A DNA stretch of 64,000 nucleotides from an uncultured Dehalococcoidales bacterium (GCA_964586515.1 CAZPGJ010000001.1:394560-458559); one strand, 5' to 3'; shown: positions 6,970 to 64,000, numbered from the stretch's first letter. The notes: a model not told the origin generated them from the letters alone. A program made the numbers and translations.

Positions 6970-7046
6970 GATTGAATTAACCCCAACAAATTTGATTCTA
7001 AATTTAGCGGGTTCCCACGAAAATCGCAAGATTCACGTGGGTGGAT

Positions 7047-9500
7047 CTAGCTCCATTCAGCGCCTTTGGACCATGCTCGGCTCAATTGTTGGCGTAAAGG
7101 TTGATGTTCAGCTTTCTTTAAATTGGGGTCGCTTTGGAAAAGAGTCATTGCCTCCTGACGAGCTAACTCCAGACTGCGTAAATCGGTTAGCTTGGCAAGT
7201 TTGAGGTCGGGCAAGCCGCTCTGTTGGGTGCCGAAAAATTCCCCGGGCCCCCGCAGCTCCAGGTCTTTCTCAGCCAGGGCGAAGCCATTATGGACCCGCT
7301 CCATCAGCCGGAGGCGCTCCCTGGCTTCCGGTGAAAGCTTTTCCGGTATAAGCAGGCAGTAGCCCTGTTCTTTATCTCGCCCCACACGTCCCCGGAATTG
7401 GTGGAGCTGAGATAAGCCAAAGCGTTCGGCACCCTCGACCATCATGACCGAAGCCCTGGGTACGTCAATGCCCACCTCCACTACCGAGGTTGATACCAGA
7501 ATATCCAGCTCCCCGCTTCGAAAATGGCGCATTACCTCCTCTTTCTCAGGACCGGGCATTTGACCGTGGAGTAGTCCTAATTTTAAATCCGGGAAAACCT
7601 CTCGCGATAGCCGCTCATATTCCGTTGTGGCGGCTTTCGCCTCCAGTATTTCGGACTCTTCGATTAAGGGGCAGATGATGAAAGCTTGCCGGCCATTGCT
7701 GACCTGGCGATGAAGGAAGGTATAAGCTTTTTCCCTATCCTGTGGTTCCAGGCATTTTGTTTTCACTACCTGCCGTCCCGGCGGCAACTCATCAATAGCC
7801 GAAAGGTCCAGGTCTCCATAGAGCGTCAGCGCCATGGTCCGGGGAATAGGTGTGGCTGTCATGACCAGGACATGAGGGTTAAACCCCTTCTGCCTCAGGG
7901 CGGAGCGCTGTAACACGCCAAAGCGGTGTTGCTCGTCTATCACCGCCAGCCCTAATTTCTTAAATTCTACCTCTTTTTGAATAAGGGCATGGGTGCCGAT
8001 AATGATGTCCACCTCACCCTGCTTAATTTTACCGTGCAGGCTTTCTTTCTCGCTGTTGCTGAGGCTCCCGATGAGCAGAGCGATGGTCAGCGGCCTCGGA
8101 ACAAATCCCGTGTAGCATCTGATAGTCCCTTCGCCCGGCTCGGAACAAGGTCCCTGGCTGCTGGCCTGGGACAGATAGTTACAGATATTGGTGAAATGTT
8201 GCTCAGCTAAGACCTCGGTGGGCGCCATTAATGCCCCCTGGTAACTGTTGGCAGCCGCTATCAAGAGGGCCAGGGTCGCGATTACGGTTTTGCCGCTGCC
8301 GACCTCTCCTTGCAGAAGACGCGACATGGCTTTGGCTTGTTTCAGGTCGGTTAAAATTTCCTGCAGCACTCGCTCCTGTGCCTGGGTCAGAGTGAAAGGC
8401 AGGCAATGTAAAAACCTAGCGATAACTTCCTGGTCTATATGAAAGGCATTGCCCGGTTGCCCTTCCTGCCAGTCTCGCTTTCTAGCCAGCACGCCTAATT
8501 GAAGAAGAAATAGCTCGTCGAAAGACAACCTCCCTCTTGCCCTTCCCGCCATTGTCAGGTCATCGGGATAGTGAATTTGAGCGATGGCGGTGGGGAGGTC
8601 TAATAACTGGCAGCGGGTCTTTATATCCGAGGGCAGGAAATCATCCAATTGCCCGGCATAGCCATCGACAGTCTCCTTGGTCCACTTCCTGACTTGCCGG
8701 GGATATAAGCCTTGAGTAAGGGGATAGACGGGGACCAGTCGCCCGGTGTGAATCAATTCTTTATTTTCCAGCAACTCCCATTCCGGGGACTCGAATACTT
8801 TTTGTCCTTTGAACAGGCTGACCGTGCCGCTGATTACTATTCTGGCATTGGTACGGAAGCTTCTTGCCAGGTAGGGTTGATTAAACCAGACCGCTCTCAC
8901 GTTTCCCGTCTCGTCGCCGACAATTGCCTCTGTGCCGCGCCGGTTACCCAAAGTAGCCACCCTGGCTTGCCAGATCGTGCCTATGATAGTTTGCTCCTCG
9001 CCCTCTATAAGTTCCGAGACGGGTTTCCTCCGGCTGTAATCGACATAGCGCCTGGGGAAGAAATAAAGCAAATCACGCACTGTCCGGACATTGAGCTTGG
9101 CAAACTTTTTATCTGCGCTGGTCGAGATGCCTCTGACAACAGTTATGGGCGAGTCCAGCCCTTCTCTTCGCTCCTGGCGGGGCCTAGCCGCTGCCGTTTG
9201 ACTACTGGCTACTGGCTTCTGACTACTGTTCGTTTTAGTCGCTTTTTCTAGCTTATCTAACCAGCTAAAGACATTTGCTATCCATCTCTTACGCTCATCC
9301 ACGCCATAAGAGCCATAATTGGACTTGGCTAAGTTAAGCTCGTCAAAGCTGCTTAAAAGCTGTGGGTTATTGATACTCTGCCTGATTTGTCCGGCCTGCT
9401 TGTGAAGATACTTATCCAGGCCGCCGATTACTGCCTTATCGGTGTAACCCTTCCGGCGCTCCAGCTCAAGAACATTTCGTAGCGAATCAATGCCTGTCAC
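7047..9500 (-). CDS. recG: ATP-dependent DNA helicase RecG
   Basis: 817 aa; wedge domain, Walker A GEVGSGKT, DEQHRFG, helicase motifs VI QLHQFRGRVGR. Confidence 0.9.
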   Translation of the reverse strand: MTGIDSLRNVLELERRKGYTDKAVIGGLDKYLHKQAGQIRQSINNPQLLSSFDELNLAKSNYGSYGVDERKRWIANVFSWLDKLEKATKTNSSQKPVASSQTAAARPRQERREGLDSPITVVRGISTSADKKFAKLNVRTVRDLLYFFPRRYVDYSRRKPVSELIEGEEQTIIGTIWQARVATLGNRRGTEAIVGDETGNVRAVWFNQPYLARSFRTNARIVISGTVSLFKGQKVFESPEWELLENKELIHTGRLVPVYPLTQGLYPRQVRKWTKETVDGYAGQLDDFLPSDIKTRCQLLDLPTAIAQIHYPDDLTMAGRARGRLSFDELFLLQLGVLARKRDWQEGQPGNAFHIDQEVIARFLHCLPFTLTQAQERVLQEILTDLKQAKAMSRLLQGEVGSGKTVIATLALLIAAANSYQGALMAPTEVLAEQHFTNICNYLSQASSQGPCSEPGEGTIRCYTGFVPRPLTIALLIGSLSNSEKESLHGKIKQGEVDIIIGTHALIQKEVEFKKLGLAVIDEQHRFGVLQRSALRQKGFNPHVLVMTATPIPRTMALTLYGDLDLSAIDELPPGRQVVKTKCLEPQDREKAYTFLHRQVSNGRQAFIICPLIEESEILEAKAATTEYERLSREVFPDLKLGLLHGQMPGPEKEEVMRHFRSGELDILVSTSVVEVGIDVPRASVMMVEGAERFGLSQLHQFRGRVGRDKEQGYCLLIPEKLSPEARERLRLMERVHNGFALAEKDLELRGPGEFFGTQQSGLPDLKLAKLTDLRSLELARQEAMTLFQSDPNLKKAEHQPLRQQLSRAWSKGAEWS

Positions 9501-42363: not shown

Positions 42364-43185
42364 ATGGCACAAACTATAAGAACTCTGGGCGATAAGGGCA
42401 GCAACCTCCTGACCGGATTATCACGCCAGGGGAAGAGACTTTTTACTTTCATGGATGCCACAGAAGTCTACGGTAAAAGCGATGGTGGACTTCATAAGCT
42501 TTTGCATACGCTGGTCAAAAGGCGGTGGCTTCAGCGTGTGGAAAAAGGCAAATACCTGATTCTCCCCTTTGAAGCTGGCCGCGAGCGTGAATGGACTGAA
42601 CACGAGTTCATTATTGCTTCCTATCTGATTAACCCCTACTACATAGGATTTCGAAGTGCATTGAACTACTACGGTTACACAGAGCAGGTCAGCCGGGCTG
42701 TCTTTATAGCATCGACACACCGCAAGATGAAGACGGAACTTGATATCTCAGGGGTAACATATCGATTCGTCCATATGACAGAGAGGAAATTCTTTGGAGA
42801 AACTAAGGTGATCTTGGACGGGTATGGCATAAAAATATCGGAACGTGAGAAGACGATTGTTGATTGCCTTGATAGATTGGAATACTGCGGTGGTATATCA
42901 GAAGTAGCCAAAGCCCTTTCATATGGCCGTGATGAATTCGATTTGGTGAAAATGGTTCATTATGCCGTGAAAAGCGGAAATAAAGCTGTAATCAAACGCC
43001 TGGGTTACCTCTTAGAGCTTCTAAATTTCGAGGCCGGTAATGCCATCAACATACTGCGCGGCAACCTTAGCAGCGGTTATTCCCCATTAGATACTTTGGG
43101 ACACCGGGAAGGCCGCCATATCCAGCGCTGGCGATTGCTAGTAAATGTACCGCAGAATGAAATCTCCCAGTGGCAGGAGCTCTGA
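42364..43185 (+). CDS. AbiEi-family antitoxin (type IV TA / abortive infection)
   Basis: 273 aa; N-terminal wHTH, AbiEi C-domain. Confidence 0.65.
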   Translation: MAQTIRTLGDKGSNLLTGLSRQGKRLFTFMDATEVYGKSDGGLHKLLHTLVKRRWLQRVEKGKYLILPFEAGREREWTEHEFIIASYLINPYYIGFRSALNYYGYTEQVSRAVFIASTHRKMKTELDISGVTYRFVHMTERKFFGETKVILDGYGIKISEREKTIVDCLDRLEYCGGISEVAKALSYGRDEFDLVKMVHYAVKSGNKAVIKRLGYLLELLNFEAGNAINILRGNLSSGYSPLDTLGHREGRHIQRWRLLVNVPQNEISQWQEL

Positions 43186-44012
43186 TGTTATCCAGAGCCG
43201 AACTTCAGAGACTAGCCAATCGGGAGAAGGTAGCTCTGGGCGTATTAGAAAAGGACTACGTGCTTACAGAGGTGCTGAAGGCGTTATTCCAGCTACCGGC
43301 ATTGCGCGAAAGCTTCGTATTCAAAGGTGGCACTGCTCTGCGCAAGGTTTATTTTCCGCGCTGGCGTTATTCAGAAGACCTGGATTTCACCGTCAAATTC
43401 GATATTCCCAAAGAAGAACTTGGACAGAACCTCGATGGCTTGTATCATCAAGTAGAACAAGCCACTCAAATTCGGCTCACTACTAGAATGCTTCACAAGA
43501 CAAATGGCTACGCCCGTATCAGGACTCAATTCTTAGGACCTTTGGCTCATCCGGCTATGATCTACATGGATTTGAGTTTCGATGAACCGTTATGCCTCGA
43601 ACCTCAGTCCCGAAAGGTATTGACTGCACCCTTCCCTGATGAGGAACGAACAGTTCAAGTGTATCCCCTGGAGGAATTAATGGCCGAGAAGATGCGCAGT
43701 TTGGTAGAACGGGGTAAATCAAGGGACTACTACGATGTGTGGAGGCTTCTAAAAGAACAACGCTCCCAGATGAACTTAGAGCTACTGGGAATGGTACTTG
43801 GGAAGAAACTCAGGCATAAGGGACTGAGACTCGGGACTACAGCAGATTTTCTCCCTGAGAATCCAGCCGGAATCAAAAGGTATTGGGAGAAAGACCTTAG
43901 TCAGCAGGTTGCTGCGCTACTACCTCTTGAGAATGTACTTAACGAGCTAAAGCACATGCTTGATAGCTATGTAGCTCCACATTTGACCTTGCAGTCTGGT
44001 GAGCCTCGATAA
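43170..44012 (+). CDS. AbiEii/AbiGii nucleotidyltransferase toxin (DUF1814)
   Basis: 280 aa; FKGGTALRKVYFPRWRYSEDLDF motif; overlaps abiEi stop. Confidence 0.7.
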   Translation: MAGALMLSRAELQRLANREKVALGVLEKDYVLTEVLKALFQLPALRESFVFKGGTALRKVYFPRWRYSEDLDFTVKFDIPKEELGQNLDGLYHQVEQATQIRLTTRMLHKTNGYARIRTQFLGPLAHPAMIYMDLSFDEPLCLEPQSRKVLTAPFPDEERTVQVYPLEELMAEKMRSLVERGKSRDYYDVWRLLKEQRSQMNLELLGMVLGKKLRHKGLRLGTTADFLPENPAGIKRYWEKDLSQQVAALLPLENVLNELKHMLDSYVAPHLTLQSGEPR

Positions 44013-44336: not shown

Positions 44337-44595
44337 CTTTCACTTCTTCCCCCTCTTAAGATAAGAGGGGCTAGGCCTGCCCGCTTGCCTTCGCTGAAGC
44401 TTTTGCGCAAGCAGGCCGAACACCTGCCCGCCAGGGCTCGGCAGGCGGGAATTCTTTGGCAGGCGGGGGAGTTATGAAGGAAGCCCGGATGTATCGGGAC
44501 TCCTCAGAATGACATGACTAAACACTGTCGATGGGCTTGACAAATACCTGTCTATGGTGTATCTTCATTGTAGATACTATGAATGGAGGTTTGAT

Positions 44596-44838
44596 ATGAA
44601 GACGCGTGTTCAGAAATGGGGTAACAGTCTCGCTTTGCGCATTCCGAAATCCTTCGCTGATGAAGTGGGACTCCGGAAAGAGACATCCGTCGAAGTATCG
44701 CTGGCAGACGGGAAAATCGTTGTCACGCGGCTAACTAAGCCGGAGCTGACCCTCGAACAGCTCCTATCAAAGGTCACCAAAGATAACTTGCATCACGAGG
44801 TTGATACCGGCTCTGCCGTGGGGAACGAAACGTGGTAG
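44596..44838 (+). CDS. mazE: MazE/PemI-type antitoxin (SpoVT/AbrB fold)
   Basis: From MKTRVQKWGNSLALRIPKSFADEVGLRKETSVEV. Confidence 0.65.
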   Translation: MKTRVQKWGNSLALRIPKSFADEVGLRKETSVEVSLADGKIVVTRLTKPELTLEQLLSKVTKDNLHHEVDTGSAVGNETW

Positions 44839-45179
44839 GCCACCGCACTTTCGTGCCTCGTTGCGGAGATGTGGTGTGGATTAGCTTAAATCCGCAAGCA
44901 GGTCACGAACAAGCCGGACGCCGTCCGGCCGTGGTGCTGTCACCACAAAGCTATAACAGCAAGGTAGGACTGGCCATCCTTTGTCCAATAACCAGCCAGC
45001 CCAAAGGCTACCCTTTCGAGGTTCTTCTTCCCGCCGGGTTACCGGTGGCAGGAGCAATATTATCTGACCAGGTTAAGAGTCTGGATTGGCGCGCTCGACA
45101 TGCCGAATTGATATGCACTTTGCCAACCGAGACAATCTCGGAGGCGCTCCAGAAGCTGGCAACGTTGTTATCGGAGTAA
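44832..45179 (+). CDS. mazF: MazF/PemK-family toxin
   Basis: 115 aa; GDVVWISLNPQAGHEQAGRRPAVVLS; overlaps mazE stop. Confidence 0.7.
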   Translation: MVGHRTFVPRCGDVVWISLNPQAGHEQAGRRPAVVLSPQSYNSKVGLAILCPITSQPKGYPFEVLLPAGLPVAGAILSDQVKSLDWRARHAELICTLPTETISEALQKLATLLSE

Positions 45180-45976: not shown

Positions 45977-46231
45977 ATGAAAGAGCAGAATAAGGACAGA
46001 AAAAGACTAAAATTAGTCCCATTTGGGGATGCATATATACAAAGAAGTAGGCGTCTCGCTATCCCTGAGATCTTGTTGCAAAACGTTGAGTTGCGGGAGG
46101 GAGATGCAGTCAAGTTATTTCTTGATGTTGGGGATATTACTGGTGAGAAGGCGATTGTGGTAATGAAATCAAAAAATCCTGACAAAATTAAGGCCAAAGG
46201 CCGCAGGCAAAAAAGAGGAGAGACTACTTGA
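45977..46231 (+). CDS. AbrB/SpoVT-like small DNA-binding protein, possible controller of downstream R-M gene
   Basis: 84 aa; RRLAIPEILLQNVELREGDAVKLFLDVGDITGEKAIVV resembles AbrB-N swapped hairpin; stop overlaps TTG start of 46228 gene; AT-rich. Confidence 0.4.
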   Translation: MKEQNKDRKRLKLVPFGDAYIQRSRRLAIPEILLQNVELREGDAVKLFLDVGDITGEKAIVVMKSKNPDKIKAKGRRQKRGETT

Positions 46232-48924
46232 TTTATCCTTTGGGTCTTTATTCAGGTGACGCCAGCAATAAGTTTTGTTCTCTCAAGAATCTTCGCAACG
46301 AGAGTGATGTAGAGCAGTTCTTCACTATCCGCTTGCTCAATCATCTGGGATATACTGACGATTTCATTGAAACAAAAACCTCACTAAAAGGTGAACTGTT
46401 AGGAAAGGGTACTAGACGTAGGACATATGTTCCTGATTATGTTTGCTATAAAGATAGGCAACATAAGATTCCTCTTCTGGTTGTGGATGCAAAGAGCCCT
46501 CTTGAAAGTGCTGAGGCAGGCGCAAGTGATGCACAAGAATATGCTGCAGTTTTACACCGACGTCTAGATGACCCAAAACCAGAAATCTATTGCATAGGCA
46601 CAAATGGTACTCGCACTATCGTAAAGCACTATGATAGAGAAAAACCAGAGTTTGACCTTACTTTTGAAGAGTTTGTTGATGGGAATCCTAAGTTCGCTGA
46701 CTTTATTTCCGTGCTTTCGAGAGCATCACTATCGGAAGTTAGTTTCCCGGCAGGTGCAATATTTGAGTTCAGGAAACCGGGCCTTGGCGAAGTAAGAGGC
46801 ATCTTCCAAGCCTGCCACAATATTATATGGCGTAAGGAAAAAATGTCCCCCCAAGCCGCCTTCTATGAATTCTGCAAAATTATGTTTATTAAACTTCGAG
46901 AGGATAAGAAGCTAAGAGGAGACCCAGAACTAAGTCAGTTGATTCGTAACGGACGTCCATTGCCGACGGATAGAGTATTGTTTAACCTTCATATGATAGT
47001 ACAAAGTGAGGATGCAGACCCTAATCCGGTTAACTCTATGCTTTTTAAGCGTCTCAGGGAAGAATTAGAACATGAAATACGAATTGGACGTAAGAAGCGT
47101 ATTTTTGAGCCTGATGAAGAGATAAGACTGAAAGCTACTACAGTTAAAGAAGTCGTGAGGCACCTTGAACACCACGACCTTTATGGTATAGATGAAGATT
47201 TAAATGGTCGATTATTTGAAACTTTCTTAAGTTCCACCATGAGAGGGCCTGAACTAGGTCAATTTTTTACACCGCGTTCTGTAGTTGAATTTATGAGCGA
47301 CCTTGTTGATTTACAAGTGTCACTTCAATATGTCGATTCGGTAATTGACCTATGCTGTGGCACTGGAGGCTTCCTTATAGAGGCGATGGCAAAAATGGCA
47401 GAAAAGGTAAACAGACCCCCGCTGGCAACTGTGCTTGGAAGTGGTGAAAAGGAAAAGATACTACAAAAGATAAGAGATGAGCAGCTACTAGGAATAGATG
47501 CAGGAAAAGACCCCCCTATAGCTAGGATTGCTAGAATCAACATGTATTTACATGGGGATGGAGGTAGCCACATCTACTTTGCAGACGCTCTAGATAAGGC
47601 GACTGCAATAGAGGAAGGTGTGGAACCTGAATTAAGAACAGAACGAGAGGAACTTCGTCAAATTCTTGTTACTGGCGGACATAAGTTTGATGTCGCCCTA
47701 ACTAATCCTCCATTTGCTATGCGTTATAAACGTTCTGAGGCTGATGAACGAAGCATACTTGAACAATACAAACTAGGGGAATATATTGCTAAGAAGGGTT
47801 CTCGAAAACAAAGAGCTTCTTTAAAGTCAAATATTATGTTCTTGGAACGGTATTGTGACTTGTTAAAGCCTGGAGGCAGACTTTGTACTATAATTGATGA
47901 AAGTGTGCTAAATACGGATACAGATAAAGAAGCCAGATACTTTCTGCTGCATAACTTCCTAGTGAGAGCCGTGATTAGTTTGCCCCGATGGGCATTTTTT
48001 GAAGCAGGCTCAAATGTAAAGACCTCTATTCTATTCTTGACCAAAAAACATGAAACGTCTGAAGAGCAACCTCACACGTTCTATGCACGCTGTGAGAACA
48101 TAGGTTATGACTATCAGAAACCAGACCCTACAAAAAATGAACTACCTATGATTCTAACCGCATACAGAGCATATCAGAAAGACGGGAAAATACTTGAGAA
48201 GCAAAAAACTCATTGGAGCGACAAGACTCGGCTCTTCTCCACGAAGTTAACATCAGACATAAGACGAATCGACTTTGAATACCTTGACCCTCGGCATGAA
48301 GTAATGCTAGAGAAATTGCAGGAAATAGCCACCACCCGAAACTATGAGATAGCTAACCTTGATGATTTATGTGAGGTGTTCCGGGGTAAGACTGCAGAAC
48401 AATATGTTACTGATGGCATCCCTATAATTAAACTACGAAACGTAACGAACGAGGGTATAAATTGGGAAGATATAGATTTTGTGCTTAGAGACTTTTTTGA
48501 TGATAATCCTGATTGCCATCTAAAGCCTTTAGATATTTTGCTTACCTCTACAGGAGTGGGAACTATCGGTAGGGTCGATATGTTGGATAGGGACATACCC
48601 TGTATGACAGATGGGCATGTTACTGTGTTAAGGGTAAAGGAACAAACTAAGGTTCTGCCCCGATATATCCTTTATTACCTCCGGTCAACTTTAGGACAAA
48701 TGCAAATGGAGAAATATACTGTAGGCAGTACTGGCCAAACTGAGCTCAATAGAGATGATGTTAAGGCAATAAAGGTTGTTTATCCTGAGTCAGCCGATGA
48801 CCAATCAAAATTAGCTGATGCTGCACACAGTATAGAGGCTGTCGCAGTCAGAGCAAGAAATGAATATAGGAATAACTTAGCAATGGCTAGACTGAAATTT
48901 GCTGAATCGTTGGGTTTGTCATAA
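46228..48924 (+). CDS. single-chain Type IIG/IIL-like restriction-modification enzyme (nuclease + gamma-class N6-MTase + TRD)
   Basis: 898 aa; N-terminal PD-(D/E)xK (VPDYVCY...VVDAKS), MTase motif I LCCGTGGFL and motif IV LTNPPF, C-terminal HsdS-like TRD; AGAGGAG SD before TTG start. Confidence 0.65.
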   Translation: MIYPLGLYSGDASNKFCSLKNLRNESDVEQFFTIRLLNHLGYTDDFIETKTSLKGELLGKGTRRRTYVPDYVCYKDRQHKIPLLVVDAKSPLESAEAGASDAQEYAAVLHRRLDDPKPEIYCIGTNGTRTIVKHYDREKPEFDLTFEEFVDGNPKFADFISVLSRASLSEVSFPAGAIFEFRKPGLGEVRGIFQACHNIIWRKEKMSPQAAFYEFCKIMFIKLREDKKLRGDPELSQLIRNGRPLPTDRVLFNLHMIVQSEDADPNPVNSMLFKRLREELEHEIRIGRKKRIFEPDEEIRLKATTVKEVVRHLEHHDLYGIDEDLNGRLFETFLSSTMRGPELGQFFTPRSVVEFMSDLVDLQVSLQYVDSVIDLCCGTGGFLIEAMAKMAEKVNRPPLATVLGSGEKEKILQKIRDEQLLGIDAGKDPPIARIARINMYLHGDGGSHIYFADALDKATAIEEGVEPELRTEREELRQILVTGGHKFDVALTNPPFAMRYKRSEADERSILEQYKLGEYIAKKGSRKQRASLKSNIMFLERYCDLLKPGGRLCTIIDESVLNTDTDKEARYFLLHNFLVRAVISLPRWAFFEAGSNVKTSILFLTKKHETSEEQPHTFYARCENIGYDYQKPDPTKNELPMILTAYRAYQKDGKILEKQKTHWSDKTRLFSTKLTSDIRRIDFEYLDPRHEVMLEKLQEIATTRNYEIANLDDLCEVFRGKTAEQYVTDGIPIIKLRNVTNEGINWEDIDFVLRDFFDDNPDCHLKPLDILLTSTGVGTIGRVDMLDRDIPCMTDGHVTVLRVKEQTKVLPRYILYYLRSTLGQMQMEKYTVGSTGQTELNRDDVKAIKVVYPESADDQSKLADAAHSIEAVAVRARNEYRNNLAMARLKFAESLGLS

Positions 48925-51938: not shown

Positions 51939-52388
51939 TCACTTCTGGGTGAACTCCGGATGGTTCCTTTTCAACCATTCCAGGACCGTAGTGCGAAGCT
52001 TCTTTGCCAGAGCAAGCATCTTCTCAACTTCTTGTTCAGAAACCATGCCCACTCTCTCATAATCAGCGATATTGCGTTTCCTGCGAAAGGTATTAAGCTG
52101 GTCAATGGTCCTGGCATCAAGCTGCATGGTGAAAGCTAGCGACTGGATAGTCCAGTAGTGGTGGCCTTCTTGTGCTGCCCTGTAGCCACTGGCAGCCAGC
52201 GCTACCGTCGCTGCCAGCAAGGCAGCACTGTAAGCGGTGGCGAATCGCCTGTCCGCGCTCAATTCATGTAACTGGGCATCCGCCAGGTCACGGTCAGCCG
52301 CCTTCAGTAGCTCGGCAATGTCGCTACTGCTTGTTTTATGGGCTCTTAACCGCCCGCTTTCCAACCAGCTTTGTAAGCTCGTATTCAT
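51939..52388 (-). CDS. HEPN domain protein (second MNT-HEPN pair)
   Basis: 149 aa; paralogue of 25347..25799 (NAAVQTAKAAL / SAALLAATVAL; RNISDYER / RNIADYER). Confidence 0.6.
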   Translation of the reverse strand: MNTSLQSWLESGRLRAHKTSSSDIAELLKAADRDLADAQLHELSADRRFATAYSAALLAATVALAASGYRAAQEGHHYWTIQSLAFTMQLDARTIDQLNTFRRKRNIADYERVGMVSEQEVEKMLALAKKLRTTVLEWLKRNHPEFTQK

Positions 52389-52953
52389 TGCCTATGAGAA
52401 AGATTTTGTCGCCCTCAAGCACTGTATTGAGGAAATGGTGAGCGTCCTTTATTTTCTGTTTGAATTCAGTGATAGGATATACTACCGGGTTGACTTCGCG
52501 CCCCAGTTTTTGTTCCGCCGGGTTGAGAAGCGAAACCACGTCTTCAAAGGAGATTCTCCCAACTATCATCACGTCAATATCGCTTGTTCTCCTTTCATCG
52601 CCGCTGACGATTGAGCCGAATATGAAAGCAACCTTTATCTGCCCGATACAAGGCGCCAGTGCTGAGCGCAGGACGTCTGCCACACCCACAGTTTTGACAA
52701 TTATTCCATGCAGCTCATTAAAAAGAGGGCTCTGCCGGTTTGCCTGATAATATTTCTGTTTTCCCTCCGTAGTCGAAACAAGAATACCGGTCTCCTCCAG
52801 ATGTGCCAGCTCACGGCTCACATTTGTAGAATCTTCCTCCACTAAGGCGGTAAGTTGGCGGACAAAATAGCGCTGATCTGGATGTGTGAATAACCATCCC
52901 AGCACCTTTGCCCTGAGCTTTGACCCTACAAGTGTTCCTAATATTCCGTTCAT
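52336..52953 (-). CDS. wHTH + minimal nucleotidyltransferase (second copy)
   Basis: 205 aa; GSIVSGDERRTSDIDVMIV; paralogue of 24779..25378. Confidence 0.7.
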   Translation of the reverse strand: MNGILGTLVGSKLRAKVLGWLFTHPDQRYFVRQLTALVEEDSTNVSRELAHLEETGILVSTTEGKQKYYQANRQSPLFNELHGIIVKTVGVADVLRSALAPCIGQIKVAFIFGSIVSGDERRTSDIDVMIVGRISFEDVVSLLNPAEQKLGREVNPVVYPITEFKQKIKDAHHFLNTVLEGDKIFLIGNEYELTKLVGKRAVKSP

Positions 52954-55599: not shown

Positions 55600-55899
55600 A
55601 TGGCAACTATAATAAAAGATCAAAATCTAGTAAGAGTGGGCAAGCCCGTCACACCGGATTCCAGGAAGCGAGTGGTTTTGCCCAAAACAGTAGTGAAAGA
55701 AGGTATTACCTATTTTATATATCATAATAGCGTTGGGCAGATAGTACTAGATCCACAGGCAAGTATACCTGCTTCTGAGTTATGGGTATTTGAAAATAAA
55801 GACGTTTTAGCCTCGATTGATAAAGGCATACGTGAGTCACTAAATGGGAAAACAATAGACCGTGGCTCATTTGCAAAACACATAAATGACGCACCGTGA
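55600..55899 (+). CDS. antitoxin-like protein (AbrB/MazE-type fold?)
   Basis: 99 aa; LVRVGKPVTPDSRKRVVLPKTVVKEG; overlaps start of downstream RelE/ParE-like gene. Confidence 0.4.
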   Translation: MATIIKDQNLVRVGKPVTPDSRKRVVLPKTVVKEGITYFIYHNSVGQIVLDPQASIPASELWVFENKDVLASIDKGIRESLNGKTIDRGSFAKHINDAP

Positions 55900-56212
55900 G
55901 CTACGTTTTACGCTTGAAGCTGACAAGCAACTAACAATCATTGAGAATGACCCCTCCCTTAAGGATGTACAAAAACAAGTAAGGAAAACTCTAAGATATT
56001 TAGAAACAAATCTCCGCTCAAAATCCTTACAAACCCACGAGTATCAATCACTAACCAGGCGTTATGGCATTAAGGTTTTTGAGGCCTATGTTCAACAGAA
56101 TACGCCGGGGGCTTATAGAGTGTTTTGGCATTACGGGCCGGATGAAATAAGCAAAGACGGAAAGCGAATACCCATTATCACCATCATTGCTATAACGCCT
56201 CACCCCGATTGA
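55886..56212 (+). CDS. RelE/ParE-superfamily toxin
   Basis: 108 aa; ...AYRVFWHYGPDE...IPIITIIAITPH C-terminal pattern. Confidence 0.5.
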   Translation: MTHRELRFTLEADKQLTIIENDPSLKDVQKQVRKTLRYLETNLRSKSLQTHEYQSLTRRYGIKVFEAYVQQNTPGAYRVFWHYGPDEISKDGKRIPIITIIAITPHPD

Positions 56213-58007: not shown

Positions 58008-59285
58008 TTAGTGCTTAGGATTTTGTATTTCTCCCAGCGCATCCTTCAAAATGACTACTGCCTTGTCCACCTCCTTTTCGGTGATGATAAGGGGCGGCAT
58101 AAAGCGCAGGGCATTCGGTTTCACTTTGTTGACCAGTAAGCCTCTATCAATACAAGCCAGTACCAACTTCTCGGCAATTTCCTGGTTAAATTCTAAAGCT
58201 ATGAGGAGTCCGCGCCCCCTCACCTCGGTGATAAAATCAAACTGCTGCCTGAGGCTTTCCAGCCTGGTCAGGAAATAATTTCCGACGCGTTTAACCTGTG
58301 CCGGTATGTTGTGGTCAATGATGTATTTCAAGGTGGCATGAGCGGCGGCACAGACCAGCGGGTTGCCACCAAAGGTAGAGCCGTGCTCGCCTGGAGAAAA
58401 AACGGAGACATTTTCTTTGGCTAAGAAAGCGCCGATGGGCACGCCGCTGCCCAGTCCCTTGGCCAGGGTCATTATGTCGGGCTCGACCCCATACTGTTCA
58501 TAGGCGAAGAGGGTTCCTGTCCGACCGATGCCCGTCTGGACTTCATCCAGAATAAAAAGGACTCCCTTTTCCCGGCACCAGCTTTGCACCTTCTTGAGAT
58601 AGTCATCGTCAGGTATGTTCACCCCGCCTTCTCCCTGGACTGGCTCCAGTATTACAGCACATGTTTGCTTAGTGGTTGCCCGCTTGACCGCCTCGACATT
58701 GTTATATTCAACATTGACAAAGCCGTCAGGCAGAGGAATGTAAGGCTCCTGAAACTTACTTTGTCCTGTGGCGGCAGTCATAGCCAGAGTCCGCCCATGA
58801 AAAGAACTATAGGTAGTAATGACCTCATAGGCGCCGTTAAGTCGAAGCTTTCCATATCTGCGAGCTAATTTCACTGCTCCTTCGTTAGCTTCAGCACCGC
58901 TGTTGCAGAAGAAGACTCTGTCCAGACAGCTATGCTCAATTAGAAGCTGTGCCAGCTCTATCTGCGGGATGGTATAAAACTGGTTGGATGCCTGGATCAG
59001 GGTTTTAGCTTGCTTTCCCAGAGCCTCGACTACCACTGGAGGACAATGCCCCAGGCTGTTTACTGCCCAGCCGCCGACAAAGTCAAGGTATTCTCGGCCC
59101 TGGTCATCCCAGGCCCAAGCCCCTTGACCGCGAACCAGAGTCACGGGGACCCTGGTGGTCGTTCTGAGAAATAACTTCTGTTCTAGCTCTGGCCAGTTAT
59201 TCTGAGACAATTGTTGTACCTCTTGATTTAGTTTGCCGAGCCTGTCCAGCGATGTCATGGAGTAAAGCATGGGGAATTTTACCAT
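58008..59285 (-). CDS. argD: acetylornithine aminotransferase
   Basis: 425 aa class III aminotransferase; PLP-lysine region DIMTLAKGLGSGVPIGA; true start may be MTSLD (59258). Confidence 0.85.
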   Translation of the reverse strand: MVKFPMLYSMTSLDRLGKLNQEVQQLSQNNWPELEQKLFLRTTTRVPVTLVRGQGAWAWDDQGREYLDFVGGWAVNSLGHCPPVVVEALGKQAKTLIQASNQFYTIPQIELAQLLIEHSCLDRVFFCNSGAEANEGAVKLARRYGKLRLNGAYEVITTYSSFHGRTLAMTAATGQSKFQEPYIPLPDGFVNVEYNNVEAVKRATTKQTCAVILEPVQGEGGVNIPDDDYLKKVQSWCREKGVLFILDEVQTGIGRTGTLFAYEQYGVEPDIMTLAKGLGSGVPIGAFLAKENVSVFSPGEHGSTFGGNPLVCAAAHATLKYIIDHNIPAQVKRVGNYFLTRLESLRQQFDFITEVRGRGLLIALEFNQEIAEKLVLACIDRGLLVNKVKPNALRFMPPLIITEKEVDKAVVILKDALGEIQNPKH

Positions 59286-59985
59286 CTATGATGCGCACGA
59301 CCTGCGCTGTAGTCAGAGCTCTGAGGCTGGCTTCTATTTTAGGAATCATGCCCCCTGAAGCTACTCCGGAGACGAGCATATCCCTGGCCTCAGCCAGGTT
59401 GAGTCTAGGGATTGCCTTCCCCGCCCCATCGTGAATACCGTCAACGTCGGTCAGGAATACGAGTTTTTCTGCAGCTAGTGCCGCGGCAATTTCCCCGGCC
59501 GCAGTATCCCCGTTAACGTTAAGCAGCATAACCTTGCCTTCAACGGAGCCGTAACTTACGGGCGCGACCACCGGCATATAGCCGGCATCCAGCAATAGTT
59601 TCAAGGGAGTGGTGTCAACGGCGACAATTTCGCCAACGTAGCCCAGCTCAGGGCTCTTGATACTCGCCCGGAGCAAGTTGCCGTCACAGCCACTTAAGCT
59701 GACCGCCTTTCCTCCCAGAGCCTGGATAGCCACTACCAATTCCTTATTGACCAGGCCACCCAACGCCGCAGCCACCACCTTCAAAGTTTCGGCATCGGTG
59801 ACCCTCAAGCCGTTTACAAAGCTGGTAGGAATGCCCAAACGGGCCAGCCACTCGGAGGTCACCTTGGCGCCGCCATGAACCACTACCAGGGACTTACCCT
59901 GTTTCTGAAGCTCGACCAGGTCTTCTAAGGTGGTATCGTGGTTGCCCAGGGTGCTGCCGCCAATCTTGATTACTATCGGTTTCAT
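59197..59985 (-). CDS. argB: acetylglutamate kinase
   Basis: 262 aa; VVKIGGS / VVHGGG amino-acid-kinase motifs. Confidence 0.9.
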   Translation of the reverse strand: MKPIVIKIGGSTLGNHDTTLEDLVELQKQGKSLVVVHGGAKVTSEWLARLGIPTSFVNGLRVTDAETLKVVAAALGGLVNKELVVAIQALGGKAVSLSGCDGNLLRASIKSPELGYVGEIVAVDTTPLKLLLDAGYMPVVAPVSYGSVEGKVMLLNVNGDTAAGEIAAALAAEKLVFLTDVDGIHDGAGKAIPRLNLAEARDMLVSGVASGGMIPKIEASLRALTTAQVVRIIDGKIPHALLHDIAGQARQTKSRGTTIVSE

Positions 59986-60055
59986 GCTTCTTCTGATCTT
60001 TTTTGTAGCTTCCTATCTAACGCCTACACTAAAGCAAGCCGTGTCTATCACCCCT

Positions 60056-62074
60056 CTACCTTCTGAACAGCCGAGTAAGCCATGAGCGCCGTTGTAGTGA
60101 CTGTCCTTCCAGCCATTCCTTGAATTCATTTGGGGTTTCAATGATCAAGGTATTGCCCCGTCGCTGGGATTTGACCGTTTGGGGAAGGTAAGCCTGATAT
60201 TCGCCAATTTCCCTAGGTTGCATATCCTTGGAGAATTCTATCAGCATGCGACCCTTTTCTGGAATGGTCTTTGCCTTTCCCCGGAGCTGATGCAAAATGT
60301 CGTACCAAGCGCGGCGGCCCGGGTCGTAGAGCCTCTCTATCGGTTCTTGGGGAAAGAATTCTGGCAAAGGGCGCTGTGCATGTTCATAAAGTTCCTTCAT
60401 GGCAACACGCGCCAACTGAAGCTCATCATCACTAACCAATTCAGAGTTCTTCAGGAGTTTCAAATAAAGATGGGAAAACCACCTGAAGATAAGGTTCTCT
60501 TCTGAGAAGAGTTTTGCTAGCTTCTGTTTACTGTGCTCATTTGGAGCAAATTGCACATCAAAATCTACGCGTTTCACCCGCGACTTAGCCCACTCTTGGA
60601 GCCGCGAACTGTTGGAAGTTATGATAATTTGAGGCGACACATAATCTTGTTTCCACCAAACTTCCCAGTAAGATTTAATTACGTTCTGAAAAATCACGCC
60701 CTGAGATACATCATCAAATACCAATGGAAATACAGTGCCAAGGTCAGTCGCCGCAAAGATCCGCTCCCTGATAAAATCCTTTCCAGAGAACGGTTGTATC
60801 ATGTGTCCTGTAAGAAGCTTGAGAGCAAAGCGTAAGAAGGTAGATTTACCGTTCTGGGAGGGGCCGTAAATATAAAGGAACCTTGGCCCTCGCTGGTCAA
60901 TTATACCGTATTTGGTTCTCTTGTTTTTCATGTATTCGTTCGCGAAGGGAGCAAAAAACATATATAGCAAGGCTTCAAACATGCTTGTCTTGGCAAACTT
61001 AGGGTCAGGTGATTGCCCGAAGTCTACTGTGTCCAGATAGTCCTCAATATGCTGGAGTCCTTGATCCACCAAAGCAGGCTCGGGCATGGCTTCACTAAGC
61101 GAGAGCACTGAGCCATTAATACCCAACCGTATCTCCTCCTGCTCTAAATCTACACGCATGAGTGGAAACCCATGATTCTCTTCTACGTAGCGGATAAAAA
61201 CGAAGTTATTCAAGCGCAGTTCATTGTGTGTCATCAAAGGTTGCAGTGGTTCCAGAAATTTGTCTATTTGTCTTTTAGCTGCTGGCGCTTTGGGCAATTG
61301 TACTGCAATGAGCGATTCCTCTCTCAGATTAGAGGATTGCAGTGCCTTTAGGGAAATTTCCTGGAGGGTCCTCTTTGCTTCCAGATTCTCTTCGTCGACA
61401 GAAGTTCCCTTAAGCCATGCCTCGATGACCTGTACTCTATCTAAATCTTTATGTTTGTCTAAGAGCTCTCTCAGATCGCCCATAAAAAGAAAACAGTCCT
61501 TGAGGTGTGATTGGTAATCCTGGCGCACTTTAAGAAGCAAAGGATCATCCACCGGGAGGTCTGCATACCAAGCGTAATTGATTTGGCGACTGGCTTGGCG
61601 TGCTGTCTCAGTGAAGTTGGCACTACTCACAATGACCCGATCAGAACTGTGCCCTTCCAAGATATATAATTTGGTGTGGATGATTCGTTCTTTAGGGATG
61701 AAGATACGTAGTATACCATCCTCCACCCTTTCCAACAGTCGTTCAGTAACTTCAATGCCCTTTCGTTCTAGATCCTGCTGGTATTGTTTAGAGAGATTTT
61801 CTCCCACAAGCACCTCAACTTCTGTATAGCCGCGCCTGTCGAAAAATTCCAGGAGCAGATCCGGGGAAACGACGTAAGAGATTGCCCAGAGCTTAGTGAA
61901 ACCTTCAAAAAGGTTCTCAAAGTTTTGCTTGCGGGAGATGACCACTGTGTGCAATGGAGGTATTGAATTGGAGGTAAAGAAGGGAATTTGTCTCATGTGC
62001 TGCTTAGAGTCTCCTCTAATGTCCGTCATCGCTACATTTCCCTTTGCGGCATTGCTGGTTTTTTTTCTTTCCAT
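60056..62074 (-). CDS. PLD-family nuclease domain fused to SF3/D5-like P-loop NTPase
   Basis: 672 aa; N-terminal HxK...SSAN motif (IIHTKLYILEG...VIVSSANFT); C-terminal Walker A YIYGPSQNGKSTFLRF and Walker B VFPLVFDDV resembling phage/plasmid primase-helicase C-domain. Confidence 0.5.
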   Translation of the reverse strand: MERKKTSNAAKGNVAMTDIRGDSKQHMRQIPFFTSNSIPPLHTVVISRKQNFENLFEGFTKLWAISYVVSPDLLLEFFDRRGYTEVEVLVGENLSKQYQQDLERKGIEVTERLLERVEDGILRIFIPKERIIHTKLYILEGHSSDRVIVSSANFTETARQASRQINYAWYADLPVDDPLLLKVRQDYQSHLKDCFLFMGDLRELLDKHKDLDRVQVIEAWLKGTSVDEENLEAKRTLQEISLKALQSSNLREESLIAVQLPKAPAAKRQIDKFLEPLQPLMTHNELRLNNFVFIRYVEENHGFPLMRVDLEQEEIRLGINGSVLSLSEAMPEPALVDQGLQHIEDYLDTVDFGQSPDPKFAKTSMFEALLYMFFAPFANEYMKNKRTKYGIIDQRGPRFLYIYGPSQNGKSTFLRFALKLLTGHMIQPFSGKDFIRERIFAATDLGTVFPLVFDDVSQGVIFQNVIKSYWEVWWKQDYVSPQIIITSNSSRLQEWAKSRVKRVDFDVQFAPNEHSKQKLAKLFSEENLIFRWFSHLYLKLLKNSELVSDDELQLARVAMKELYEHAQRPLPEFFPQEPIERLYDPGRRAWYDILHQLRGKAKTIPEKGRMLIEFSKDMQPREIGEYQAYLPQTVKSQRRGNTLIIETPNEFKEWLEGQSLQRRSWLTRLFRR

Positions 62075-62137
62075 AAACGTGGTGATGCAAAAAGTATATT
62101 AAAGAGGAACTTTGGCCTGCTCCATCTCTGCTCCTTC

Positions 62138-62365
62138 TTAAAGCAAGTTTAAGAACTGTTCAACAGTAAGCCCAGCATCCTCAAGTATGCCGTGGAGAGT
62201 CCCCTTTGGCAAATCCTTCGTGTGTAAAGGTACAACCACAAGATTGGGAACACCTTCTTTGTGCATAGAAACATGACTCCCCTTCTGACGATGAACCCTC
62301 CAGCCAGCCTTTTCCAAAGCTCTAATCACATCCCTTGGTGTAACGGCTGGCAATCGCTTACTCAT
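62138..62365 (-). CDS. hicA: HicA-family toxin
   Basis: 75 aa; PRDVIRALEKAGWRVHRQKGSHVSMHKEGVPNLVVVPLH. Confidence 0.7.
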   Translation of the reverse strand: MSKRLPAVTPRDVIRALEKAGWRVHRQKGSHVSMHKEGVPNLVVVPLHTKDLPKGTLHGILEDAGLTVEQFLNLL

Positions 62366-62589
62366 CCAACTTCCACGCTGATAACCTTTCTCTCTGGTAT
62401 CTTGATACCTAACTCTCTAGCACTCTCCAGCCAAAGCTCGATTGCCTCTTTGATTCTTTCCAGTGCTTCTTCCTTTGTAGCTCCATAGGAATGACAACCT
62501 TTCAAGAGAGGGCAGTAAACATGATACCCTCCCTCCTCTTCCAACTCTAAGATAACCTCAAAGTTTTGGACAATTCTTTTCTGCTTCAC
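62362..62589 (-). CDS. hicB: HicB-family antitoxin
   Basis: 75 aa; FEVILELEEEGGYHVYCPLLKGCHSYGATKEEALERIKEAIELWLE. Confidence 0.7.
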   Translation of the reverse strand: MKQKRIVQNFEVILELEEEGGYHVYCPLLKGCHSYGATKEEALERIKEAIELWLESARELGIKIPERKVISVEVG

Positions 62590-62611
62590 TTCTCACCTCC
62601 CAGAACTCAAA

Positions 62612-63811
62612 TCAGGTTGTATAGGTGCTGTTAATAGTAACATATTCTTCGGAGAGGTCACAGCCCCAGGCAGTGGCTTGGCCGTCTCCTAAATGCAGGC
62701 ATAGCCTTATGAGTACATTATCGCTGTTGCTCAAAGCCGATTTCATTTCCTCTCTGCTGAAGGAGGCGGGGCAGCCCTGCTTCATAACACAAACATCGTT
62801 CAAATAGACATCCAATCTGTCTTCTCTCACCCTGGCTCCGCTTCGCCCCAGGGCAGCAACGATGCGCCCCCAGTTAGGGTCGTTGCCATGGATGGCTGCT
62901 TTCACCAGCGGTGAACTAGCGATAGTTCGAGCCGCCTGGCGGGCCCCAGCCTGGTCTTCCGCCTCTTCTACTACAACTTCAATAAGTTTTGTGGCTCCCT
63001 CTCCATCCCGAGCCATGGACTTAGCCAGATGAGTGCAAACTGCATTTAAGGCTTCTTGAAAGGTGCCGCCATTATCAAAGTCAATAGGTTCGTTACCCAC
63101 TAAGCCATTGGCCAATAGAAATGCACAATCGTTGGGGCTGGTATCGCCATCAATACTTACCATGTTGAAAGAGCAGTCCACCGCCTTTTGTAATGCTACG
63201 CGCAGGAAATAAGCATTTACCACAGCATCGGTGGTGATAAAACAAAGCATCGTAGCCATGTTGGGATGAATCATACCTATCCCTTTAGCCACCCCACCAA
63301 TGGTGAACTTAGTTCCTTTTGAATCTACCTGGACGGCCATTTCCTTTGGTCTGATATCCGTGGTCATTATTGCCCGGCAAAAATCGTGACCACCTCCTCT
63401 GGTTGGCTTTATCTTAGGAATTCCAGCCCTGATTTTATCCATGGGCAAGGGCACGCCAATGATACCGGTACTGGCGACAAGGACTTCCTCAGGAGATATG
63501 TCTAGCTTGGCGGCTGTCAGGTTTGCCATTTCCAAGGCGTCTGCCAGTCCTTGCTCGCCTACGCAGGCATTGGCACAACCGGAATTTACCACTATAGCCT
63601 GCGCCCGTCCTTTTGCTATATGCTTCTGGGATAAAATAACTGGAGCGGATTTAATCTGGTTGGTAGTAAAAACGCCGGCAGCCGTGCAGGGCGCTTCGGA
63701 GCAAAGAATGGCTAAATCAGGCTCATCTTTACTCTTTATCCCAGCACACACCGCCCCAGCCAGGAATCCTGAAGCTGAGGTAACACTGCCCGAAGGAATT
63801 AAGTTAAACAT
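62612..63811 (-). CDS. argJ: glutamate N-acetyltransferase / amino-acid acetyltransferase (bifunctional ArgJ)
   Basis: GFLAGAVCAGIKS N-terminus, autoproteolytic ATML site (PNMATMLCFITTDA); start set at MFNLIP. Confidence 0.85.
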   Translation of the reverse strand: MFNLIPSGSVTSASGFLAGAVCAGIKSKDEPDLAILCSEAPCTAAGVFTTNQIKSAPVILSQKHIAKGRAQAIVVNSGCANACVGEQGLADALEMANLTAAKLDISPEEVLVASTGIIGVPLPMDKIRAGIPKIKPTRGGGHDFCRAIMTTDIRPKEMAVQVDSKGTKFTIGGVAKGIGMIHPNMATMLCFITTDAVVNAYFLRVALQKAVDCSFNMVSIDGDTSPNDCAFLLANGLVGNEPIDFDNGGTFQEALNAVCTHLAKSMARDGEGATKLIEVVVEEAEDQAGARQAARTIASSPLVKAAIHGNDPNWGRIVAALGRSGARVREDRLDVYLNDVCVMKQGCPASFSREEMKSALSNSDNVLIRLCLHLGDGQATAWGCDLSEEYVTINSTYTT

Positions 63812-64000
63812 AAGATTCAAATATAGCAGGAAATGGGGGCAACGTCTATTCCCAGCGACCTCGCAGCCCAGGCAACTCCTTTTCTGGATTGCTTCGTGGC
63901 TCAGGCTTGACCTACAGTTCAAGCCTGAAGTTGCTTTCGCCTACTATCCTGCTCAATTCTCCAGCTAATTCGGGGCAGTAATTTACTGTTATGTTGGGCA

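Follow-up and report, generated by a model that had tools for sequence, protein, structure and literature searches.

Our study showed that argJ and argB of an uncultured Dehalococcoidales bacterium are separated by a horizontally exchanged cassette, which carries the gene for a 672-aa protein and lies beside an unrelated hicB-hicA toxin-antitoxin (TA) pair at a variable hotspot of the arginine operon. The locus was analysed within a 64,000-nt stretch of the genome (the window), to which all coordinates refer unless a relative is named. Sequence comparison identifies the 672-aa protein as a bacterial, Argonaute-less member of the AgaP/Aq_aa27 family, in which a phospholipase D (PLD)-type nuclease is predicted to be joined to a helicase-like ATPase. 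The reading that we favour, with moderate confidence, is that the protein is an autonomous, nucleoside triphosphate (NTP)-dependent PLD nuclease of defence type that has spread by recombination at the argJ-argB junction. AgaP has so far been characterised only as an accessory of haloarchaeal Argonautes. The family is far wider, taking in Dehalococcoidia, other Chloroflexota, Elusimicrobia and Chlamydiae as well as haloarchaea; most of its bacterial members occur without an Argonaute or any other fixed partner, and the ATPase, strongly conserved in every member examined, lies outside the discussion of the AgaP study. This raises the questions of how a self-toxic nuclease is restrained, what the ATPase does in Argonaute immunity, and whether a mobile-element helicase has been turned into a defence motor.

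Kinship with AgaP and the two predicted catalytic modules

The open reading frame (ORF) and the parts of its product are located as follows.

60056-62074, minus strand: 672-aa AgaP-like protein, predicted PLD/HKD nuclease plus helicase-like P-loop NTPase (Pfam PF27394, Aq_aa27)
61445-61951, minus strand: predicted nuclease domain of PLD fold (aa 42-210), one HKD motif (Foldseek, weak Pfam matches)
61610-61678, minus strand: HKD motif HTKLYILEGHSSDRVIVSSANFT, aa 133-155 (H133, K135, S151, N153; conservation in 79 members)
60095-61327, minus strand: predicted three-tier helicase-like module, aa 250-660 (AlphaFold2 (AF2) model, Foldseek)
60839-60865, minus strand: Walker A, GPSQNGKST, aa 404-412 (conservation in 79 members)
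60710-60730, minus strand: Walker B, FPLVFDD, aa 449-455 (conservation in 79 members)
60578-60628, minus strand: motif C/sensor-1, IIITSN (N488), and candidate arginine finger R499 (motif pattern, fold)

The exact protein carries the precomputed Pfam assignment PF27394 (Aq_aa27), and BLASTP aligned its residues 50-668 with aa 24-710 of Natrinema pellirubrum AgaP (E 2e-72, 28% identity). The two proteins are homologous over their full length and have the same order of parts, namely an N-terminal HKD nuclease, Walker A and B motifs, a motif C asparagine, an arginine finger and a C-terminal domain. AgaP is a PLD-family protein that is paired with long-A Argonautes in the haloarchaeal APAP systems (Cheng et al., mLife 2024, PMC11442185). 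On its own it is toxic in Haloarcula, a toxicity that requires the HxK/GSxN residues and is suppressed by Argonaute, and plasmid restriction requires the catalytic site of AgaP and not that of Argonaute (PMC11442185). The terms 'ATPase', 'Walker' and 'P-loop' do not occur in that paper, which treats AgaP as a PLD protein only (PMC11442185). The N. pellirubrum protein is encoded by a continuous 717-aa ORF downstream of the Argonaute gene (6032-8185 of locus L177, NC_019963.1), in which we found the published residues H105, K107 and G157-S158-x-N160. In the gene table of NC_019963.1 (PLSDB copy of RefSeq), the C-terminal half of AgaP appears only as a 375-aa 'hypothetical protein' and the PLD part is covered by small ORFs on the opposite strand. 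This AgaP has an insertion of about 50 aa between HxK and GSxN that is absent from the window protein, where the spacing is 18 aa. The Argonaute-linked AgaPs of Natrinema zhouii, Salinigranum, Haloferax and Natrarchaeobaculum have the canonical spacing of the window protein, so that the long spacing is a trait of a sub-clade and does not define the family. The window gene differs from its haloarchaeal counterparts in its setting: it has no Argonaute neighbour, whereas in APAP the gene for a long-A Argonaute is adjacent and co-transcribed, and it is bacterial, chromosomal and inside a biosynthetic operon, whereas the haloarchaeal contexts that we inspected are plasmids.

A large protein database yielded more than 320 full-length homologues, each close to 650 aa and assigned to PF27394, a newer Pfam family; their sources are Dehalococcoidia, other Chloroflexota, Elusimicrobia and Chlamydiae. 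A filter-free search gave 492 clusters at 50% identity, and most of the 150 listed were full-length at about 650 aa, the rest being shorter fragments. This wealth of homologues shows the 672-aa ORF to be a real gene. Its first 36 residues were modelled with low confidence and most homologues begin further in, and the true start may therefore be an internal methionine (M16 or M27). Full-length homologues with 27-29% identity were also found by tblastn against plasmids, on 21 haloarchaeal megaplasmids. Sequence and profile searches of Protein Data Bank (PDB) chains with the 672-aa protein gave only chance matches, and no relatives of the family were found in IMG/VR or among GenBank phages. The family name points to an Aquifex gene, aq_aa27, which lies on plasmid ece1. 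A literature search on aq_aa27 returned only noise, and another retrieved no paper joining a PLD nuclease with a superfamily 3 (SF3) helicase.

Conservation was assessed in 79 divergent members with 20-48% identity to the window protein. In the N-terminal domain, H133, K135 and N153 are invariant and S151 is kept in 76 of the 79, the catalytic motif, of the HxK(x)4D(x)6G(S/T)xN type, reading H133-x-K135 ... S150-S151-A-N153. There is one HKD motif per chain, and its D position is variable (E in 35/79), as in BfiI and Tdp1-type members. The AF2 model of the whole protein (pLDDT 84) matched PLD-fold structures in Foldseek with E values from 1.5e-7 to 1e-3, led by SauUSI, a restriction enzyme of type IV (7clg, 1.5e-7), and followed by the NgoAVII R-protein (4rct, 2.9e-7) and Nuc (1byr, 2e-4), with Tdp1 and PssA also among the matches. 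These comparisons support a single-HKD PLD nuclease fold for the N-terminus, with SauUSI, NgoAVII-R and Nuc as its closest relatives by model. SauUSI and MtsD of MANTIS/Gao_RL offer a close parallel in overall logic: both join an N-terminal single-HKD nuclease, which needs dimerisation, to an NTP-driven motor. Their motor is a superfamily 2 (SF2) helicase-like ATPase that acts as a dimer, whereas the window protein is predicted to carry a ring-helicase-like (AAA+/SF3-type) P-loop module; nor was a target-recognition domain for modified bases identified in it. Gao_RL is represented among the PADLOC models, none of which matched the window protein. BfiI, the NgoAVII and CglI R-proteins and Nuc share the fold and the HxK...SxN half of the active site with the window protein, and there are weak sequence matches to BfiI, REase_II and RE_NgoFVII. 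Unlike the window protein, the BfiI, NgoAVII/CglI and Nuc enzymes have a B3-like DNA-binding domain or none, and their ATPase, where one is needed, is a separate SF2 protein.

The C-terminal half is strongly conserved too. G404, G409, K410, N488 and R499 are invariant in all 79 members, and within Walker B P450 is kept in 79, D454 in 75 and D455 in 76. Judging by the motif pattern and the model, N488 and R499 probably follow the core strands as in AAA+/SF3 ATPases. The near-complete conservation of these residues and of the HKD residues across such divergent members indicates that both catalytic centres, nuclease and ATPase, are maintained by selection. In the AF2 model the PLD domain is followed by a helical linker, a small alpha/beta domain (aa 255-325), long helices, a P-loop core with its lid (core aa 399-505) and a C-terminal winged-helix-like domain (aa 601-656). 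The Cch helicase of SCCmec was matched by the whole model (6e-6) and, when aa 250-672 were modelled separately (pLDDT 87.4, pTM 0.84), was the best Foldseek match in the PDB (5dgk, 1.5e-5 over 409 columns), followed by AAA+ unfoldases, the large T antigens of SV40 and JC virus, PriRep1 and the PrimPol of African swine fever virus. Among the viral models of BFVD, there were 76 matches at E<=1e-3, to phage DUF927, VirE, D5/COG3378 and NrS-1-like primase-helicases. In mobile-element helicases an N-domain, the ATPase and a winged helix follow one another in three tiers (PMC9371898). The window protein resembles its best fold matches (SCCmec Cch, SaPI Rep/PriRep and phage D5/VirE/DUF927) in this same order and in the presence of motifs A, B and C and the arginine finger. 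It differs from these primase-helicases in carrying a PLD nuclease in place of the N-terminal primase domain, and in the lack of any primase or origin-binding context. Conserved motifs and modelled fold together support a P-loop NTPase of the primase-helicase type, of the SF3 or the MCM-like (SF6) clade. The haloarchaeal AgaPs, including the one studied experimentally, also contain Walker A motifs, and most of them match the Walker B search pattern.

A first-pass annotation of the window had read the protein as a PLD nuclease fused to a phage- or plasmid-type primase-helicase NTPase. The motifs that it quoted from aa 133-155, 404-412 and 449-455 are all present, and both domain assignments are borne out by residue conservation and fold, the NTPase with the latitude between SF3 and MCM-like just mentioned. 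Its description of the pairing as lying outside the textbook systems has to be corrected, as this is the architecture of the AgaP/Aq_aa27 family, which has an experimentally studied haloarchaeal member.

Insertion and exchange at the argJ-argB junction

The ORF map made for 54-64 kb places argJ, hicB, hicA, the 672-aa ORF, argB, argD and argG in this order on the minus strand, all in one direction.

62612-63922, minus strand: argJ, upstream flank of the insert (Pfam ArgJ, E 5e-151)
62362-62589, minus strand: hicB antitoxin, 75 aa (Pfam HicB_lk_antitox, E 4.4e-10, 40.2 bits against a cut-off of 27)
62138-62365, minus strand: hicA toxin, 75 aa (Pfam HicA_toxin, E 4.7e-21, 75.1 bits against a cut-off of 27)
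59197-59985, minus strand: argB, downstream flank of the insert (Pfam AA_kinase, E 7e-46; argJ-argB-argD-argG synteny in relatives)
59986-62611, minus strand: inserted segment, 2,626 bp, from the argJ stop to the argB start

The gaps are 22 bp between argJ and hicB, 63 bp between hicA and the 672-aa ORF, and 70 bp between the latter and argB. Judged by its homologues, argJ itself probably starts near 63769. The G+C content of the insert is 45.5%, against 52.5% for the flanking arg genes. The hic genes form a pair of the type II HicAB kind, with both Pfam domains above cut-off, small genes encoding 75 aa each that overlap by 4 nt, and the antitoxin gene first. Pfam detects only a HicB-like fold in HicB, which we read as a short form lacking the DNA-binding extension. 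A promoter and terminator scan of the insert gave counts equal to those of shuffled controls. The 672-aa gene is co-directional with the arg genes and presumably transcribed together with the operon.

For comparison, the window ArgJ was scanned against one genome per species (GTDB), which gave 80 loci, all from metagenome-assembled genomes of Dehalococcoidia/Chloroflexota, and the window proteins were placed on them by tblastn. The order argJ-argB-argD-argG holds throughout. Both argJ and argB are present in 76 loci, and the gap between them is at most 40 bp in 64 of these and below 200 bp in 72, from which we conclude that the 2,626-bp segment is an insert. This agrees with the first-pass annotation, which had placed a hicB-hicA pair and the 672-aa ORF between two normally contiguous genes; and, far from being a core gene of the relatives, the insert is absent from the same 72 loci. 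The closest relatives (L007, L009, L038 and L042, with ArgJ 90-91% identical) are among those with adjacent argJ and argB. In blastn comparisons with insert-free relatives, homology ends at 62616 and restarts at 59976.

The content of the junction changes from one lineage to another. In L033 (ArgJ 77% identical), argJ is followed by a gene for a 276-aa Mrr_N-domain protein, a homologue of the 672-aa gene (86% identical) and argB. In L017, an 825-bp gap between argJ and argB (1364-2189) contains, decayed to a 138-aa ORF, what is left of the Mrr_N-domain gene that is intact in L033; this points to turnover at this site. In L022, argJ is followed by hicB and hicA (89-90% identical) and then by unrelated sequence up to the end of the contig. 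Two metagenome contigs also carry the 672-aa homologue, L090 after an argJ fragment and an HTH_17/PIN pair, and L091 together with an Mrr_N-type gene. The argJ-argB junction is thus a hotspot with changing content, and the locus provides a clean example of a defence/TA 'islet' turning over at a single junction inside a housekeeping operon. The 672-aa gene occurs without hicBA in L033, L090 and L091, and hicBA is followed by other sequence in L022; the two are therefore separable modules, contrary to the first-pass annotation, which had treated them as a single insert. Neighbourhood comparison revealed no functional tie between them, and HicBA was rejected as a partner or antitoxin of the 672-aa gene on the grounds of this separability and of the presence of HicB-type neighbours in only 1-2 of 70 groups of family members.

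Comparison with L033 shows that the cassette has moved between lineages. The 672-aa genes of the window and L033 are 87.1% identical in DNA sequence, with 78.9% third-position identity at conserved residues, whereas argJ, argB, argD and argG are 74-78% identical, with a third-position identity of 49-54%. The higher third-position identity of the gene relative to its flanks indicates that the cassette was exchanged long after the two lineages diverged. The tract of high identity fades within the 5' part of argB. In addition, L033 contains an 87-nt pseudo-copy of the 5' end of argB, 76% identical to the real one (L033 6604-6690 and 9011-9097), between the Mrr_N gene and the AgaP-like gene and directly upstream of the cassette, where it marks the recombination junction. 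From the fading tract and the pseudo-copy, exchange apparently took place by recombination involving argB sequence and not by transposition. A search of the window for repeats, direct or inverted, on either side of the insert gave only short, chance-level matches, with no terminal repeats or target duplications, and conserved flanking DNA among family members was found only within sub-clades. In one such sub-clade (L132, L135, L144 and L147), segments of 28-36 nt that are 89-93% identical precede the gene by about 65-100 nt and by about 1-28 nt despite differing neighbours; these may be a promoter or 5'-untranslated region travelling with the gene.

Neighbourhoods, mechanism and competing explanations

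We called ORFs around 70 distinct (95% identity) bacterial and metagenomic family members and clustered their neighbours. No conserved partner emerged from these 70 contexts, no neighbour family being found in more than 3 groups by clustering. Two distant members (P0185 and P0133) are on contigs too short for an informative neighbourhood. No Argonaute was detected around the 70 members (tblastn with five haloarchaeal prokaryotic Argonautes over 1.8 Mb, and a hidden Markov model search of 742 ORFs), in the eight Pfam-labelled bacterial contexts, or, as a Piwi gene, within the 64-kb window. The neighbour seen most often is an Eco57I/MmeI/Type-ISP-like methyltransferase of 950-1125 aa, which in 5 of 58 groups lies directly upstream on the same strand, at a distance of 18-134 bp. 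Complete type IIG models (PADLOC REase_MTase_IIG, best E 0) are matched by at least three of these enzymes, and we therefore read them as probably co-located independent systems and not partners. The methyltransferase loci are L087/L088 (6874-9972), L116, L166, L003/L004 (6442-9819), L096 (1-2844) and L099, and a ParE TA pair often stands ahead of the methyltransferase. Among the other neighbours are type III restriction-modification genes, GmrSD, a DUF87 ATPase, ThsB-TIR, HEPN-AbiU2, DruA, AbiEi/AbiEii and DpdE-like proteins, and TA components are frequent (ParE, PIN, HepT, HicB and PemK). On haloarchaeal plasmids, a Piwi-domain gene is directly adjacent to the homologue in 5 of the 8 contexts inspected and lacking in the other 3. 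On several of these plasmids (L170-L172, L174 and L175) AgaP adjoins, with or without Argonaute, a recurrent gene block for an AAA ATPase, the UvrD helicase, a PD-(D/E)XK nuclease and, finally, a large ATP-dependent helicase; in other cases the genes after AgaP are Mre11/Rad50/NurA/HerA-like, or encode a DEAD helicase, an RNase H-like protein and a further DEAD helicase.

These defence-island contexts, together with the homology to AgaP, support the defence-type role that the first-pass annotation had suggested. In the mechanism that we propose, the NTPase module would oligomerise, probably into a ring like those of its structural relatives, and load on DNA; hydrolysis of NTP would drive or license translocation, and two PLD domains would pair to form one HKD active site and cut DNA that is extrachromosomal or comes from phages. 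It would be a motor-nuclease working by itself, of a restriction or defence type, and would follow the logic of SauUSI and MtsD, except that its ring-type motor would be akin to the helicases of mobile elements. The same protein is coupled in haloarchaea to a long-A Argonaute that restrains and directs it, while the bacterial clade would act without a linked partner. A bolder version, which we put forward tentatively and consider rather doubtful, is that the AgaP family as a whole consists of enzymes that nick or cut and unwind, built on a mobile-element helicase module in which PLD has replaced the HUH or primase domain. The bacterial orphans would then be Argonaute-independent immune enzymes that load themselves on extrachromosomal DNA, and Argonaute would have joined later in haloarchaea, to target the enzyme and keep it contained. 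In that case an overlooked ATPase would be central to APAP immunity too.

Several points weigh against an autonomous defence nuclease. The member characterised by experiment is haloarchaeal, and for the bacterial ones oligomerisation, helicase activity and the substrate are predictions. Since AgaP alone is toxic without Argonaute (PMC11442185), an orphan copy would need some other restraint, and none was identified. The Argonaute scan of the host genome covered the 64-kb window, so that a distant Argonaute is possible. Many family copies stand alone amid housekeeping genes, as in the window, and not in defence islands. Scans of the 672-aa protein against NCBIfam and PHROGs gave nothing significant, and the PADLOC-DB v2 scan matched no system, its sole hit being a chance-level one to REase_II (BfiI-like, E 0.009). 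Profiles for the two halves stayed below their thresholds: PLDc_2 reached 18.8 bits against a cut-off of 27 in the window protein, and DUF5906 13.6 bits against 27.6, with weak DUF5906 matches in 16 of 30 members (best E 0.027). Pfam matches of family members to Tyr-DNA_phospho, RE_NgoFVII and PLDc_2 are only weak, and the TM-scores of the fold matches are low (0.2-0.43).

The protein could still be an APAP component that works with an Argonaute encoded elsewhere in the genome, which would both restrain and target the nuclease; it is a full-length homologue of a protein that is toxic alone and neutralised by its Argonaute, a Piwi gene adjoins most of the haloarchaeal plasmid copies inspected, and our view of the host genome spans 64 kb. 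We nevertheless consider this unlikely, as functionally coupled defence genes are normally linked and no Argonaute was found in the window, in the 1.8 Mb around the 70 members or in the eight Pfam-labelled bacterial contexts, and an adjacent one is missing from three of the eight haloarchaeal copies as well. A purely selfish addiction cassette, in which HicBA and a toxic nuclease would persist through the cost of their loss and bring the host no benefit, would account for the adjacent TA pair, for the toxicity of unrestrained AgaP, for the frequency of TA modules of several families among the neighbours and for an insertion site in an essential biosynthetic operon, a place that makes deletions hazardous. 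It is nonetheless the least probable of the explanations considered here: HicB-type neighbours are as rare as noted above, the gene is found at the same site without HicBA, and no cognate antitoxin for the nuclease was seen. The strict conservation of both catalytic sites across phyla also argues for a selected enzymatic function and against addiction.

Two further explanations place the protein outside defence. An accessory host gene for DNA repair or end processing, combining a Tdp1-like phosphodiesterase with an ATPase, would fit the Tyr-DNA_phospho matches, which are weak and found in 11 of 30 members (best E 2.3e-6), the presence of Tdp1 among the fold matches, and the PGAP label of 'tyrosyl-DNA phosphodiesterase' on some homologues. 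The UvrD, PD-(D/E)XK nuclease and Mre11/Rad50/NurA/HerA-like genes beside haloarchaeal copies point the same way. Yet the distribution is patchy and shaped by horizontal transfer, with the closest relatives lacking the gene, restriction nucleases head the fold matches, defence genes turn up repeatedly nearby, and toxicity and plasmid restriction have been shown experimentally for AgaP (PMC11442185), which makes a repair function less likely still than an unlinked Argonaute. The helicase-like module instead recalls replication or mobilisation initiators, with a PLD nickase standing in the HUH or primase place before an SF3-type helicase, and the gene could then be a remnant of a mobile element or spread by itself. 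PLD enzymes form a covalent histidine intermediate, which would suit such a role, as would the resemblance of the C-terminal module, including its winged-helix-like domain, to the self-loading helicases of SCCmec, SaPI and phages, and the family name, with its pointer to a gene of Aquifex plasmid ece1. The gene also recurs at one chromosomal junction in diverged lineages with a synonymous divergence far below that of its flanks. However, no integrase, partition or other element genes accompany it, neither terminal repeats nor target duplications were found in the window, flanking DNA is not conserved across family members, and IMG/VR and GenBank phages contain no relatives. The only plasmids with matches are large replicons of haloarchaea, where an Argonaute gene adjoins the homologue in five of the eight inspected, and the L033 junction with its argB pseudo-copy resembles recombination with host sequence and not transposition. 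An initiator role accordingly ranks below repair, as a distinctly improbable explanation.

Other features of the window

A patch of 39-42% G+C between a flavodoxin gene and argG (55600-56212, plus strand) contains two overlapping ORFs of 99 and 108 aa in a TA-like layout, with no Pfam or PHROG match. At a distance of 7-18 kb from the insert is a stretch that resembles a defence island and includes an AbiEi/AbiEii pair (42364-44012, plus strand), small unannotated ORF pairs (44554-45179), a Polbeta-type nucleotidyltransferase (52336-52953, minus strand) and an 898-aa N6_Mtase/Eco57I/Methylase_S fusion (46228-48924, plus strand), which resembles a type IIG restriction-modification enzyme. The last was considered as a relative of the methyltransferases adjacent to family members and rejected, the similarity being confined to a 155-aa motif region at 26% identity.

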